A stretch of 64,000 nt of DNA from Eledone cirrhosa. Its lineage: Eukaryota. The notes under the pieces are model-generated. The model did not search any database and was not told where the DNA came from. It worked only from the letters and a program-made list of their open reading frames with translations. Below are positions 10,383 to 26,330 of the stretch, piece by piece. A program made the position numbers and the translations under genes. The stretch covers positions 82,956,001 through 83,020,000 of the forward strand of contig OZ024742.1 of NCBI GenBank assembly GCA_964016885.1. The letters are read 5' to 3'. Numbering within the stretch: the stretch's first letter is position 1; each line of letters begins with the position of its first letter.

Positions 10383-11134
10383 TAAGGAGCACACTAACAC
10401 CAGGGCCTCGTCTTTCCGGAAACACATAGCCAAATGCGGAAACAAGGACGGAAGGCCCATTGCCACAATTCTCGCGACAGAAAGAAACGTCGGCACATTA
10501 CGTATCAAGGAAGCACTTTGGATCAAACGCCTAGGGCCACAATTAAACAACCGATCCGAGAGAAGCGAAATAAGGTGCTTGGTTTAATTTAACAAACGAG
10601 ACACACACAGTAACATTCACCAAACAGGCAGAGAATACTATGGACTGACAGCTAGCGCCACCCCACTCCCACAATTGAAAGAACTACTTCGGCCGCTGAC
10701 CTCTGCTTGACCGACCCCATTTTACGCGCACGCGCATCTGCTGAATACCTCAGATATTCAAAACCACGAACAGCGGAGGACACGCTTCGCACCTTTCCGA
10801 CACACAACCTTTACCCCACGCCCCGAAAAAAAACCCCAGTTGATGGATGTGAATCCGAAATATATAGGGACAATTAAATCTCTCCCAAAGTAACTCTATC
10901 CTGTTGTTATTTTTATTTTTATTTTTATCCTTTACGGTCTTTCCTTCATTCCTCTACACGCTCCAGTCTTATACATGCCACGCATCTCAACGTACACCCA
11001 CTTACATGTCTCTCTCCACCAGTGGATCTTATTACCCGGAGATTTACCCATCTGCATTTTCGAGGCTTCTAAACGACTTAAAGTAATTTACCTTATTATT
11101 CCACAATGCTTCAAGCAAACTTCAATACTCACTT
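10383..11134 (+). mobile_element. Penelope-like element 3' end, 5'-truncated second copy
   Basis: Colinear and highly similar to 47-958; (TA)n on both sides. Confidence 0.85.
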
Positions 11135-11152
11135 ATATATATATATATATAT

Positions 11153-12202
<1,050 letters not shown>

Positions 12203-12507
12203 CTATTCCATTTCTTATGCCCGAAACGTCGTCCCCCACTTACCCCCCACTCTCCTGAGCGTGAAATTAATAAACATTTATTGTACTGCCTCTCTGTTTT
12301 GTCCCTGTTCAAATTTTTCCATTATATATATATATATATACAAATGAATATATGATAGGGATAAACACTAATACAAGTATATAAGTGTTTGTATTGCAAA
12401 TGACCAAGTTAGCTAGATTAAAAAATACTAATTAAATTAATACAGTTTGCCTGTCTCGATTTAAAATAATAAATCAATAAAAACAAACCTATATTGGCAA
12501 TAGCCGT

Positions 12508-18494: not shown

Positions 18495-18544
<50 letters not shown>

Positions 18545-18656
18545 ACGAAGGAGGTGTGGTAAGGAACCAGATGGACCATAACGCAGAGTACTCAATACTT
18601 ATGCTAGTAGAGTGGGTAATAGTAAAATGTATATACACTTTCCTATATATATATAC

Positions 18657-21161: not shown

Positions 21162-21672
21162 ATGTGTGTGTGTGTGTGGCTATCTTCATATTTAATATAC
21201 AAATGGCTTCTACAGGACCATATATATGTTCACTACAAATACGAATAATACCATTACCACCACCCACAAACAACATCACACACACTTACACATCTCTAGA
21301 CATGCACAAACACACATGTTTACAAGCAAAATAAGTACCTTATACACACACATACGTACCCACACATGCTATCATACGCCTTTTGACTCCATATTACTGA
21401 AATTCATCTGAATTAATATATTAAAATTAAAATGTAATAATTAATACGCTGGTAGTGTAAATCATATAAAATATTTCGCGTAGCAACTAGTAACAGTACC
21501 AACTAGTAACTCTAATTAAACACACCTTAGCATCCATAGGTATTCATTACAGTCTTAGGTGAATTATATGTCAGAACACATAATGAACAATTCCAAAGCC
21601 TTATATGTACACCTGTAGGTCTGCAGACCCCCACATACATACAATTATAAGTGACATATATATATATATATA

Positions 21673-22412
21673 TATAAACGGAAAAAATGAAACGAAATTT
21701 CATTTCTCACTCTTAGTACAGCTGTTACTTAAATATAAGTATGTATACGTACATACATATATGTATACAGACGTACAGTAGTATGTATATATATATACAT
21801 ACATGCACACATATATATATGTACGTATGGATTCACCGAACATTTATTATAATACTCGGTGTGTTTGTAAACAAACATCCCGAATTAAGCCGTACAGTGT
21901 CTAGCAACCATCGTTACTCATTTGTTCAACACTAACAAAGGAACGCTGTACTAGTTTCAAGCTTATTAGCTATCGTCAACAACGTATACCTTCCTGCCAG
22001 ATGGTTGAACGTCTGAAAGTATATACTTTCCTTATGCATATTAACGGCTGAGCAGCCTAATTTGCATATCGAGTGTGTTAATCGGCCGGAGTACCGAAAA
22101 CGATAAACGGAAAAATGAAACGAAATTTCATTTCTCACTCTTAGTACAGCTGTTACTTAAATATAAGTATGTATACGGACATACATATATGTATACAGAC
22201 GTACAGTAGTATGTATATATATATACATACATGCACACATACATATATGTACGTATGGATTCACCGAACATTTATTATAATGCTCGGTGTGTTTGTAAAC
22301 AAACATCCCGAATTAAACTGTACAGTGTCTAGCAACCATCGTTGCTCATTTGTTCAACACTGACAAAGGAACGGTGTACTAGTTTGAAGCTTATTAGCTA
22401 CCGTCAGCAACG
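21673..22412 (-). repeat. 428-bp tandem repeat (~1.7 units) with one hammerhead per unit
   Basis: Near-identical blocks at 21741 and 22169; (TA)n flanks. Confidence 0.9.
21943..21985 (-). ncRNA. Minimal type I hammerhead ribozyme (428-bp family)
   Basis: Reverse complement ACGTTG-TTGACGA-T-AGCT aata AGCT-T-GAAA-CTAG-TA-CAGCGT. The second copy (22371-22412) has CTGACGG and CAAA, so the consensus is CTGACGA...GAAA. Confidence 0.65.
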
Positions 22413-22428
22413 ATATGTATATATATGA

Positions 22429-22473
<45 letters not shown>

Positions 22474-22690
22474 GTTAAAGATGTACATCCATATATGTAT
22501 ACTGAAATACTAGTATGTATATGAATACACACACGTATACATATGTAGATGTACCAAGTTTTTTTCACTGGTCACTTTACTGTGAGTGGCCAGCTATTCT
22601 GTATGTAAACACACCGACAAACCGGTTTTTAGAGTCATACGGGTTTTTGAGGAAACACCTTTCCTCTATTCTCCAAAAAGCCAGACAAGG

Positions 22691-22735
22691 AATATTGAAC
22701 TAGTTTCGTTGTTGTTACAACTCATCAGCAATATT
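22691..22735 (-). ncRNA. Minimal type I hammerhead ribozyme (468-bp family, inverted arm)
   Basis: Exact reverse complement of the plus-strand HHR. Confidence 0.9.
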
Positions 22736-22841
22736 TACCTATCTTCCGGCCTCTCTAGAGAATCGTAAAAGCACATATCGTTATATGCTTTTTCTATGAA
22801 AATTAGTAGTACGATTCTCTAGAGAGGCCGGAAGATAGGTA

Positions 22842-22886
22842 AATATTGCTGATGAGTTGTAACAACAACGAAACTAGTTCAATATT
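22842..22886 (+). ncRNA. Minimal type I hammerhead ribozyme (468-bp family, unit 1)
   Basis: AATATTG-CTGATGA-GTTG taacaa CAAC-GAAA-CTAG-TT-CAATATT. Canonical core, 7-bp stem I, palindromic ACTAGT stem III; GUU^ after 22879. Confidence 0.92.
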
Positions 22887-23309
22887 CCTTGTCTGGCTTT
22901 CTGGAGAATAGAGGAAAGGTGTTTCTTCAAAAACCAGTATGACTCTAAAAACCGGTTTGTCTGTGTGTTTACATACAGAATAGCTGGCCACTCACAGTAA
23001 AGTGACCAGTGGAAAAAACTTGGTACATCTACATATGTATACGTGTGTGTATTCATATACATACTAGTATTTCAGTATACATATATGGATGTACATCTTT
23101 AACTTAATTGTTTAAGCGTCAGTCATACAAAAGTGAGTTACAAACGAAACGAAATTTAATTTCGTTTCGTTATTTGTTTTTATCGTCTCCGTTGAACCGG
23201 TACTTACTCACACTCTATGCAAGTTAGTCTGCCCACTACTAATTTTCATAGAAAAAGCATATAACGATATGTGCTTTTACGATTCTCTAGAGAGGCCGGA
23301 AGATAGGTA

Positions 23310-23354
23310 AATATTGCTGATGAGTTGTAACAACAACGAAACTAGTTCAATATT
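23310..23354 (+). ncRNA. Minimal type I hammerhead ribozyme (468-bp family, unit 2)
   Basis: Identical to 22842-22886. Confidence 0.92.
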
Positions 23355-23777
23355 CCTTGTCTGGCTTTCTGAAGAATAGAGGAAAGGTGTTTCCTCAAAA
23401 ACCAGTATGACTCTAAAAACCGGTTTGTCTGTGTGTTTACATACAGAATAGCTGGCCACTCACAGGAAAATGACCAGTGAAAAAAACTTGGTACATCTAC
23501 ATATGTATACGTGTGTGTATTCATATACATACTAGTATTTCAGTATACATATATGGATGTACATCTTTAACCTAATTGTTTAAGCGGCAGTCATACAAAA
23601 GTGAGTTACAAACGAAACGAAATTTAATTTCGTTTCGTTATTTGTTTTTATCGTCTCCGTTGAACCGGTACTTACTCACACTCTATGCAAGTTAGTCTGC
23701 CCACTACTGATTTTCATAGAAAAAGCATATAACGATATGTGCTTTTACGATTCTCTAGAGAGGCCGGAAGATAGGTA

Positions 23778-23822
23778 AATATTGCTGATGAGTTGTAACA
23801 ACAACGAAACTAGTTCAATATT
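23778..23822 (+). ncRNA. Minimal type I hammerhead ribozyme (468-bp family, unit 3)
   Basis: Identical to 22842-22886. Confidence 0.92.
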
Positions 23823-24245
23823 CCTTGTCTGGCTTTCTGAAGAATAGAGGAAAGGTGTTTCCTCAAAAACCAGTATGACTCTAAAAACCGGTTTGTCTGT
23901 GTGTTTACATACATAATAGCTGGCCACTCACAGTAAAGTGACCAGTGAAAAAAACTTGGTACATCTACATATGTATACGTGTGTGTATTCATATACATAC
24001 TAGTATTTCAGTATACATATATGGATGTACATCTTTAACTTAATTGTTTAAGCGTCAGTCATACAAAAGTGAGTTACAAACGAAACGAAATTTAATTTCG
24101 TTTCGTTATTTGTTTTTATCGTCTCCGTTGAACCGGTACTTACTCACACTCTATGCAAGTTAGTCTGCCCACTACTAATTTTCATAGAAAAAGCATATAA
24201 CGATATGTGCTTTTACGATTCTCTAGAGAGGCCGGAAGATAGGTA

Positions 24246-24290
24246 AATATTGCTGATGAGTTGTAACAACAACGAAACTAGTTCAATATT
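24246..24290 (+). ncRNA. Minimal type I hammerhead ribozyme (468-bp family, unit 4)
   Basis: Identical to 22842-22886. Confidence 0.92.
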
Positions 24291-24713
24291 CCTTGTCTGG
24301 CTTTCTGGAGAATAGAGGAAAGGTGTTTCCTCAAAAACCAGTATGACTCTAAAAACCGGTTTGTCTGTGTGTTTACATACAGAATAGCTGGCCACTCACA
24401 GTAAAGTGACCAGTGAAAAAAACTTGGTACATCTACATATGTATACGTGTGTGTATTCATATACATACTAGTATTTCAGTATACATATATGGATGTACAT
24501 CTTTAACTTAATTGTTTAAGCGGCAGTCATACAAAAGTCAGTTACAAACGAAACGAAATTTAATTTCGTTTCGTTATTTGTTTTTATCGTCTCCGTTGAA
24601 CCGGTACTTACTCACACTCTATGCAAGTTAGTCTGCCCACTACTAATTTTCATAGAAAAAGCATATAACGATATGTGCTTTTACGATTCTCTAGAGAGGC
24701 CGGAAGATAGGTA

Positions 24714-24758
24714 AATATTGCTGATGAGTTGTAACAACAACGAAACTAGTTCAATATT
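24714..24758 (+). ncRNA. Minimal type I hammerhead ribozyme (468-bp family, unit 5)
   Basis: Identical to 22842-22886. Confidence 0.92.
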
Positions 24759-25052
24759 CCTTGTCTGGCTTTCTGGAGAATAGAGGAAAGGTGTTTCCTC
24801 AAAAACCAGTATGACTCTAAAAACCGGTTTGTCTGTGTGTTTACATACAGAATAGCTGGCCACTCACAGTAAAGGGACCAGTGAAAAAAACTTGGTACAT
24901 CTACATATGTATACGTGTGTGTATTCATATACATACTAGTATTTCAGTATACATATATGGATGTACATCTTTAACTTAATTGTTTAAGCGTCAGTCATAC
25001 AAAAGTCAGTTACAAACGAAACGAAATTTAATTTCGTTTCGTTATTTGTTTT

Positions 25053-25106
<54 letters not shown>

Positions 25107-25138
25107 TAACGAGAATGTATATATATATATATATATGA

Positions 25139-25220
<82 letters not shown>

Positions 25221-26330
25221 GAACATTCATATATATATACATTCTCACCCTCAATTACTCCGTATACACGCGTTTAACTCTGTAGTAATAGATCCCACTT
25301 AATTAAAATGTGCTTTATTTTTTAAAGATTAATTGTATACTTCTACCTCTAGTTTAAGGTAATTTACGTGTTATCTTAGCTACCAGTAACAAAAAAAAAA
25401 AGAAAAAATAGGTTCTCTAGTTTACAGATACACTTAATTTGTTAATGGTTTACTTGGCTACTCTTTGATCGGTAGAACTTACTGCTGGTCGTGATGCAAA
25501 TATGGCTCTGTGGTCTGAAAATGGCGGAGACATGCCTGGTGGCAGGCATACATACACACACACCCTCATATATCTTCGATCGATATAATTCTACCTCCTC
25601 TTAACAATTCTATCATAAGTATAACGCGGATGAACGCATGGTGACACACATACATAAACATACGGATGCACATACCGATGCGCACATAGCCACACACATC
25701 CATAGGCACACATACACAGGTACTTTCCCATTCATACAAATACTCCTTAAATATATATATAAAAATGTATAAAAATCCATGTATCTGTATCTGTATATGA
25801 GAAATGCAATCAAATCATTCTAAAACCCTTTGCAAGATCCCATAAGAAACACTTTATATCCTTATATGGACAAACTACGCCCCAATGATATGGACTAACC
25901 GAGATGATAACAGTATGGAACTAGCTGTTGAAATGATAAGAGCTGAGCCGTCGGGTCCCGATTCTTTATAATATAGGCATCCTCTACTACCTCAGTTATC
26001 AAGGACTCTATTGAGTAATAGTCTAACTAGTTTTAAACTGGTTCCATCTTAATATATGTATATATATATATATATGTGTGTGTGCATCTGTGCATGTGTG
26101 TGTGTGCGCGCGTCCCAGGTTCAATCGGGGTAACCACAGTAAGTAAGGTACTTAATACATTAGTAGTATGTAAACATCAAGTTTCATATAGAGAATGGCT
26201 TCTAAATTTCTAGTCTTGTAGAAGCCAATTCTATATCAAATTTGTTATACGTATATATACACAGTTTATACACATACTTTGACCCATACCCGTATCTCCG
26301 TCTCTATCTCTCTCCCCCTCTCTCTCTCTT

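Follow-up and report, generated by a model that had tools for sequence, protein, structure and literature searches.

The window, a stretch of 64,000 nucleotides of the Eledone cirrhosa genome, contains two adjoining types of repeat unit, A (428 bp) and B (468 bp), which are almost certainly homologous subfamilies of one metazoan non-LTR retrozyme family. We consider it probable (roughly 0.7) that these hammerhead retrozymes are mobilized in trans by a PLE RT/GIY-YIG protein that primes twice on one, probably circular, RNA. A and B appear to be old sister subfamilies of a single abundant non-coding mobile element, in which about a third of the letters have changed while the predicted self-cutting fold has been kept. 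Their loci carry the PLE footprint: two head-to-head, 5′-truncated arms lie in (TA)n, one with a long and the other with a short 3′ end.

The original prediction had described two arrays about 60 bp apart, divided by a TA-rich tract. B does form a multi-unit array, whereas A comprises only 1.7 units and no long array. The TA gap exists (Table 1), but it separates A from an inverted B arm that had been missed; this arm lies on the same strand as A and is joined head-to-head to the plus-strand arm. The two A copies are 96.1% alike and the units of the direct B arm 98.7–98.9% alike. Because the divergence between copies is greater in A, we infer that A, the older insertion, came first and that B entered the adjoining TA tract later. 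The A–B adjacency is real but calls for no particular connection: (TA)n is the target of both subfamilies and also flanks their insertions. One further A–B neighbour pair is present in 29 A stretches. B has six intact cores in the window, and the predicted cuts in the direct arm, at a GUU triplet, fall after positions 22879, 23347, 23815, 24283 and 24751. The claim that both units keep GAAA–CTAG holds for B, but both A cores in the window are mutated and the partial A unit lacks GAAA. In 27 other stretches, 54 of 71 A cores are intact. The octamer-like motif of A is, by analogy, what we take to be a candidate promoter element; a search of the newt promoter literature found none holding the motif, and an octamer variant is carried by the youngest B copies.

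Table 1. Features of the A and B insertions in the window (positions counted from its first letter)
Feature	Position	Strand	Remarks
Separate older A-family insertion	11914..12213		Two short head-to-head arms; short end left, long end right
(TA)n tract, long 3′ end of A element	21656..21673		
Single-armed A insertion (1.7 repeats of the 428-bp unit)	21674..22412	-	Long 3′ end at 21674; 5′-truncated at unit position 119
Hammerhead core, full A unit	21949..21979	-	C3>U, predicted inactive
Octamer-like motif	22060..22067	-	Lies in the best-conserved A/B block apart from the hammerhead
Hammerhead core, partial A unit	22377..22407	-	A9>G and G12>C, predicted inactive
TA-rich tract of 56 bp separating A from B	22413..22468		Inferred to have been the target when B inserted later
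B inverted arm, 0.7 unit	22469..22810	-	3′ end short, within (TA)n, at about unit position 393; 5′ end at unit position 52
Intact hammerhead of B inverted arm	22675..22746	-	
B direct arm (4.8 repeats of the 468-bp unit)	22810..25055	+	From unit position 95 at the 5′ end, head-to-head with inverted arm, to unit position 468 at the long 3′ end
Type I hammerhead, first of the five intact ones in the B direct arm	22831..22902	+	Core starts 22849, 23317, 23785, 24253, 24721
Small predicted stem-loop holding the short 3′-end site	24972..24987	+	Last unit shown; recurs every 468 bp
‘Tail’ between short and long 3′-end sites, about 70 nt	24988..25055	+	Strong predicted hairpin; 58 nt in A
TA-rich tract, long 3′ end of B	25056..25239		

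When set in register at their common 3′ end, an A unit (reverse complement of 21675–22104) and a B unit (23184–23651) align along their full length; 286 of the 477 columns are identical, which is 68% when gapped columns are left out. The score of 247 compares with 30.7 ± 12.1 for dinucleotide shuffles, none of 500 being as high (z about 18), and the wrong-strand control gives z −0.6. Homology extends outside the hammerhead and the TA-rich parts, where the decisive test of the original prediction lay: z is 7.3 for the segment 5′ of the hammerhead (0 of 1000 shuffles as high), 4.8 between the hammerhead and the TA hairpin (0 of 1000 by global and 11 of 1000 by local alignment) and 5.2 for the 3′ segment (0 of 1000). 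The shared blocks named beforehand are all present and keep their order in A and B. The pairing of segments first proposed (reverse complement of 21673–22100 against 22810–23277) also aligns, but with z only 5.7 and with the units out of phase. The description of an old, diversified family also holds.

Intact type I hammerhead cores number 40,079 in the genome, against three control hits, and 9,305 of these are of the B type. An Rfam search of the window returned nothing at gathering score; against HH9, whose cut-off is 52, the B hammerheads reach 37.7–37.9 bits, and those of A have no listing. Rfam miRNA and sRNA matches were rejected as AT-rich hairpins far below cut-off. The hammerhead stems pair in both units, as had been claimed, although the stem II comparison was one base out of register; stem II is closed by G–C in B and by a U·U mismatch in A. 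Sixteen subfamily haplotypes were picked by hand; 93% of their stem cells pair, and both sides have changed in 9 of 22 pairs. The percentage paired, the number of cells changed and the covariation score all exceed the shuffle control for these haplotypes, whereas the count of pairs with double changes does not (195/500). When pairs are predicted from B by itself, 44 have changed in A and 26 of these still pair, compared with 30% under a substitution null. The compensatory changes originally proposed are thereby supported, as is selection on RNA structure, though acting on source lineages and not on the copies in the window, in which both A cores have decayed. Covariation outside the hammerhead and TA hairpin is mixed (p 0.0005–0.18). 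Most double changes trace to one deep split, and so reflect few independent events.

Helix III of the B hammerhead is a 2-bp palindrome that is invariant in all 16 haplotypes; co-folding of two copies, using an energy model that omits tertiary terms, gave no helix III duplex. Three B and three A units are predicted to adopt the same branched circular fold, with 66–71% of the sequence paired, and fold z-scores for six units (25 shuffles each) range from −7.9 to −12.9 on the hammerhead strand versus −4.5 to −7.3 on the other strand. The B unit has a GC content of 35%. The longest ORF inside the repeats is 68 aa and none contains RT and GIY-YIG; because no such ORF lies in the element, A and B are not autonomous EN+ PLEs. 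A tRNA search of the repeats found none. Their traits are those of retrozymes: tandem units of 428 and 468 bp, many dispersed loci, a hammerhead in each unit and no coding sequence.

The two-arm organization of B recurs at 28 of 35 stretches in a first set (three more ran past the stretch) and at 29 of 40 in an independent set, the loci having been drawn by similarity search, which over-represents young multi-unit copies. Among the 28 two-armed loci of the first set, all with readable ends, 27 combine a long with a short end, one has two short ends and none has two long ends. The 29 independent loci comprise 23 long–short pairs, three with one end off-site and three that were unreadable, with no like pairs. 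Pooled B loci with both ends at fixed sites are therefore long–short in 50 of 51 cases (p 2e-14 versus independent choice), and the same holds for 12 of 12 A loci read by eye. Both end sites are homologous in A and B and have been kept across the deep subfamily split; the short site of A sits in a stem-loop homologous to that of B. The single short–short locus (L076) is the only one in the first set with arms from different templates (10 differences in 208 nt). Under a strict pattern, an A/T run of at least 8 nt flanks the left side of 25 and the right side of 27 of 28 loci. A search for target-site duplications found similar flanks at 13 of 28 loci, compared with 27.5% for mismatched flanks, a difference that locally periodic microsatellites could also give.

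The arms contain up to 13–14 units, and arrays of more than 20 units exist. Their 5′ ends show little relation to the hammerhead cut site, with 4 of 52 lying within 8 nt where 1.9 are expected (KS test against uniformity, p 0.28). Arm 5′ ends placed half a unit apart (9 of 27 first-set loci, p 4e-5, post hoc) were dismissed as chance after only 1 of 29 independent loci showed the spacing; coinciding 5′ ends were given no weight (3 of 27 in the first set; the 2 of 29 in the second are tail-palindrome artefacts).

Units differ by 0.09% within an arm, 0.11% between arms and 1.16% between loci (26 loci); the second set gives 0.55, 0.66 and 3.9% (25 loci). Variants that are private to a locus and fixed throughout both of its arms include 15 A>G and 5 T>C changes (p 0.018), a modest bias whose polarity is set against the majority sequence and not an ancestor; single-unit variants include 30 and 34, respectively (Fisher p 0.025 for the comparison). 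A>G changes in locus-wide variants are expected if an edited monomer is copied into every unit, and the sharing of locus-specific, A>G-biased variants by the two arms suggests that one RNA, probably a circle, was copied from both DNA ends. Of 141 variable sites in the first set, 70 are fixed in both arms, 63 are single and none is common to only some units across arms. At one locus (L322), six A/G sites vary among units in both arms, and 16 such sites are present in the second set; the L322 sites require a template with unlike units. This locus resembles a mosaic of two haplotypes. Whole haplotypes are common to several loci, and periodic variants inside single arms (L069, L092, L301 and L321) indicate that arrays also grow after insertion.

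An alternative that we regard as unlikely retains the same family and PLE two-site priming, but has the enzyme copy a long linear transcript that was never cut and came from a parent array of uniform units; the hammerhead would be kept for processing or stability and no circle would be copied. Variants common to both arms would result from such a transcript too, and the L322 pattern, the 16 similar sites and the haplotypes found at several loci agree with it. Two arms alone need no circle, because autonomous PLEs also make overlapping two-arm insertions, and an uncut transcript is described as the dominant substrate of the anole PLE in vitro (PMC11167929). It accounts less well for the 0 of 141 first-set sites common to only some units across arms and for an editing-like bias that is confined to locus-wide variants, and arms of 13–14 units would shrink in each generation without a re-expansion step. 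Copying of hammerhead-cut linear monomers in succession by template jumping is considerably less probable: PLE-type RTs are related to telomerase (PMC8557442) and L322 is mosaic-like, with two haplotypes, but 5′ ends do not clearly pile up at the cut site, single-unit variants have no A>G bias, and units are nearly identical within a locus while loci differ. DNA-level satellite growth of a dead PLE remnant, by unequal exchange and inverted duplication without an RNA step, fits the periodic variants of older arms and the arrays of more than 20 units, but it deserves very little credence, since it can explain neither the fixed long and short (TA)n ends of 50 of 51 dispersed loci nor the strand bias of the A>G changes nor the compensatory stems.

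For trans-mobilization by a PLE protein, we envisage the following course. Arrays would be transcribed and the hammerheads would cut the RNA to monomers, probably acting as dimers via the palindromic helix III, after which the monomers would be ligated to circles; this step is modelled on newt, axolotl, coral and mussel retrozymes. A PLE protein would then cut (TA)n on both strands, and cDNA would start at two sites 58–75 nt apart, one for each DNA end. The fixed ends are observed directly, and we consider two-site priming by a PLE enzyme very likely. Each RT would round the template a variable number of times, writing multi-unit arms whose 5′ ends fall at random and which are subsequently joined. 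The arm structure and the common variants are seen in the loci, and we lean slightly towards the view that the template was usually a circular monomer. Copying would be restricted to RNAs with the fold intact, so that source lineages gain compensatory changes while inserted copies decay; both the covariation and the copy decay are observed. A more specific model, which we advance tentatively and at somewhat less than even odds, is that a Penelope RT dimer primes both (TA)n break ends on a single circular RNA that carries the ribozyme. The two sites would be set by structure and would have remained fixed although the family diverged by a third, and each event would roll out two multi-unit arms. 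If so, the conserved 60–75-nt tail and its stem-loop would be the minimal cis signal by which a circle of any kind could hijack a PLE. Contigs of two sequencing runs close on themselves at 468 nt, as tandem DNA would also give.

PLE reverse transcription of a circle has been proposed, but not shown, for metazoan non-LTR retrozymes, whose expression and cleavage have been demonstrated (Cervera and de la Pena 2020, PMC7229834); A and B are known here from sequence alone. They resemble the elements of that report in their tandem units (non-coding, low in GC, each with a single type I hammerhead), their highly paired predicted circle, their thousands of copies and the presence of two related families in one genome, and resemble axolotl retrozymes in a weak helix III and, in one family, a U·U mismatch at the base of helix II. 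The units are at or above the upper size quoted there (150–450 bp), and the text of that paper does not use the words ‘inverted’, ‘microsatellite’, ‘octopus’ or ‘cephalopod’. The short helix III also recalls the dimeric hammerheads of newt satellite 2 and ASBVd, where a longer helix is formed jointly by two hammerheads in tandem (PMC6155905). Autonomous PLEs co-occur as well with Xenopus retrozymes, which have been interpreted as non-autonomous PLE derivatives, and families there likewise range from monomers to long multimers (Li, Clavereau, Pollet 2026, 10.64898/2026.07.22.740005). The evidence in Xenopus is pLTR similarity and post-insertion local amplification is favoured, whereas A and B have no pLTR match, are linked to PLEs by their insertion footprint and form young arrays that appear born multi-unit. 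Eight of nine Xenopus dimers did not cleave in vitro, and the text of that report does not use the words ‘tail’, ‘covariation’ or ‘compensatory’.

PLEs are known to leave an inverted 5′-truncated copy, a tail at one end and a TA bias (Craig et al. 2021, PMC8557442), and during insertion both strands are cut and extended, and the tail lies between two RT start sites (Frangieh et al. 2024, PMC11167929). A and B share with these EN+ PLEs the inverted 5′-truncated copy, the one-end tail, the AT-rich or (TA)n targets and two putative RT start sites, of which the short one lies in a small stem-loop; they differ in having no ORF, a tail of 58–75 nt rather than 30–40 nt, and multi-unit arrays in both arms. 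Non-autonomous Chlamys elements also make multicopy head-to-tail insertions, but belong to PLE groups without canonical hammerheads (PMC8557442). Our literature search found no description of two-armed retrozyme loci or of the A/B family, although subscription papers, Repbase/Dfam or bioRxiv supplements may hold one. The present analysis adds an end pairing of two arms that is replicated in independent loci, and a fold and two end sites conserved across a deep subfamily split. Hammerhead covariation by itself is expected for any ribozyme-bearing mobile element; the two-arm footprint says more about mechanism. Ribozyme-bearing tandem repeats have been known since newt satellite 2, and a PLE route for their return to genomes is directly testable with the existing in vitro PLE assay. 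For this the A/B family offers a defined substrate, two mapped candidate priming sites and thousands of natural products, and its genome also contains young PLE candidates.

BLAST found no homology between A or B and a PLE pLTR in a small sample of 50 GIY-YIG stretches drawn from 10,596 candidates. No homologous pLTR turned up next to hammerhead loci either, including those with other stem II lengths, or in the 5′ flanks of 28 loci that were single-armed or incompletely mapped. Autonomous RT + GIY-YIG elements are present in the genome, and one young autonomous PLE family (L172 and L260) has short and long inverted arms in (TA)n and a tail of roughly 60 nt. A head-to-head junction between a PLE and B occurs in a single case (L108).

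The genome is a (TA)n-rich animal genome of 3.0 Gb, and the window holds elements of two retrozyme subfamilies, A (428-bp units) and B (468-bp units). From left to right the order is (TA)n, A, a TA-rich spacer, the B minus-strand arm, the B plus-strand arm and a TA tract, with the two B arms joined 5′ to 5′. The repeats contain no ORF longer than 68 aa, and no tRNA was found in them. We infer that A arrived first, as a single arm that has since decayed, and that B subsequently entered the TA tract at the 5′ end of A. Their adjacency reflects a shared target preference; one more A–B neighbour pair (L034, another stretch of this genome) occurs among 29 A stretches. The two short sequences beside TA tracts, at the foot of the table, may be ends of other TA-targeting elements.

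Features of the A and B elements and neighbouring sequences in the window (PLE, Penelope-like element; short and long, the two fixed 3′ outer-end sites of arms)
Feature	Position	Strand	Description
A element	21674-22412	-	1.7 units of 428 bp; copies 96.1% alike
Spacer A/B	between 22412 and 22469		56 bp, TA-rich
B minus-strand arm	22469-22810	-	0.7 unit
B plus-strand arm	22810-25055	+	4.8 units of 468 bp; about 99% alike
Older, second A-family insertion	11914-12213		two short head-to-head arms; left end short, right end long
PLE remnants	4-222 and 10384-10560		GIY-YIG ends, L167-type
Inverted motif	25105-25252		small, around a TA run
Repeat end	18540-18620		recurs in L104 and L105

Aligned in register, A and B match end to end: 68% of the ungapped columns are identical (z 17.9; none of 500 shuffles scores as high), and a wrong-strand control gives z -0.6. 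Tested one by one, the segments that exclude the hammerhead and the TA-rich hairpin give z values of 7.3, 4.8 and 5.2. Every segment aligns beyond the controls on its own, and the similarity is therefore not confined to those two parts; the arrays are diverged homologues, as the original prediction proposed.

In the window, six type I hammerhead cores of B are intact; they score E about 2e-7 with Rfam HH9, yet fall under the HH9 cut-off. Both A cores there carry catalytic-core changes; elsewhere, 27 stretches contain 71 A cores, 54 of them intact. The expectation that the core is kept in both arrays holds for B but not for A at this locus. A genome-wide pattern search for the shared core returns 40,079 sites (9,305 of them B-type), compared with 3 for the reversed control pattern. 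Distinct hammerheads are also present in at least three autonomous PLE families (L160, L161, L163, L172, L166, L175, L169), and in one of these, likewise, helix III is palindromic and helix II has U.U at its base.

Compensatory change was assessed in 16 haplotypes, hand-picked from the listed core haplotypes to span subfamilies. The core and palindromic helix III are invariant, 93% of stem cells pair (81% in shuffles, 32–49% with slid partners) and 9 of 22 pairs are altered on both sides; one pair in stem I occurs as U-A, U.G, G.U and A-U. Because the haplotype rows are related by descent, most double changes amount to one event on the A/B split. When that split is counted as a single comparison and pairs are predicted from B alone, 26 of the 44 pairs that differ in A still pair (null 30%), and double changes preserve the pair in 12 of 22 cases (null 5.1, p 0.0005). 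Four A/B comparisons that leave out the hammerhead and TA hairpin give a mixed outcome, with p ranging from 0.0005 to 0.18. Circular folding of three B and three A units predicts a common branched layout, with the hammerhead strand more stable. Selection on the RNA structure of the ribozyme is well supported, and selection on that of the whole unit is likely, if less firmly shown. The predicted homology and compensatory changes hold up, as one would expect in a family of this kind; what makes it interesting is a testable copying mechanism. An octamer-like motif (22060-22067, minus strand; 23217-23224, plus strand) lies in the most conserved non-hammerhead block and is present in 13 of 16 aligned units, the youngest B copies having a variant. 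Newt satellite 2 has an snRNA-type internal promoter, and by analogy the motif could possibly be one.

The insertions leave a distinctive footprint. Among 35 B stretches mapped in a first set, 28 are two-armed and head-to-head with both outer ends readable, 4 are one-armed and 3 extend past the stretch. Outer ends adjoin (TA)n and fall at unit position 468 (long) or about 385–400 (short), and 27 of the 28 two-armed loci pair long with short. The sole short+short locus (L076 3255-4388) has arms from two different templates, of different B subfamilies. The footprint is replicated in 40 further B stretches, none used before: the 29 two-armed loci comprise 23 long+short, 3 with one off-site end and 3 unreadable, with no like-like pair among them. 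A ends lie at 428 and 370. On reading by eye, 12 A loci have each outer end at a fixed site, and all 12 are long+short; about five more, where an end is off-site or was not read, are left out of this count. The end sites of A and B are homologous in the alignment; both these sites and the fold are conserved across the A/B split. The short site is predicted to lie inside a small stem-loop and the long site after a hairpin. The 5′ ends are spread evenly over the unit, with no pile-up at the ribozyme cut; a half-unit spacing of arm 5′ ends, seen in the first set, failed in the second and is rejected. We found no description of two-armed retrozyme loci in the literature accessible to search.

Units differ far less within a locus than between loci: 0.09% within arms, 0.11% between arms and 1.16% between loci in the first set (26 loci), and 0.55%, 0.66% and 3.9% in the second (25 loci). 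First-set variants include 70 that are fixed across the two arms, of which 15 are each private to a single locus, and 63 confined to one unit; none is common to only some units across both arms. In a strand-bias test, private fixed variants include 15 A>G versus 5 T>C, and single-unit variants 30 versus 34. This bias is consistent with an edited monomer having been the template for all units in the two arms, as a circle would give. Against such copying stand six A/G sites that vary among units of both arms in L322 (2374-5744), where the template may have been dimeric, or mixed and unequally edited, 16 such varying sites in the second set, and periodic duplication after insertion in older arms. 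Very long arrays, of about 25 A units or with B arms of >13 to 21 units, occur in L095-L096, L310, L313 and L323.

At the sequence level the A/B element shows the features of metazoan non-LTR retrozymes (PMC7229834), and would be assigned to that class on those features. It works like a PLE insertion, yet is not an autonomous PLE. A retrozyme–PLE link is proposed in PMC7229834 and is argued from similarity of PLE terminal repeats (pLTRs) in 10.64898/2026.07.22.740005. The genome has 10,596 candidate GIY-YIG elements, with reverse transcriptase (RT) in the same frame and their own hammerheads. One young PLE family (97–99% alike; L172, L260) has inverted arms in (TA)n and a tail of roughly 60 nt, the segment between the short and long sites, on one arm only, the same layout as the A/B loci. 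This layout matches the PLE insertion features given in PMC8557442 and the in vitro result of PMC11167929, in which both strands are cut and RT starts at two sites. No pLTR homologous to A or B is present in 50 PLE stretches. In L108 (800-1834), a B arm lies head-to-head with the 3′ portion of a PLE ORF, which matches the L159 family at 82% and is cut off exactly at the junction, possibly a mixed insertion event, in a single case among 28 flanks tested. B-like sequence (window 23184-23700) also occurs in sequencing runs X1, X4, X5 and X6, which carry four organism labels from four studies and differ greatly in depth.
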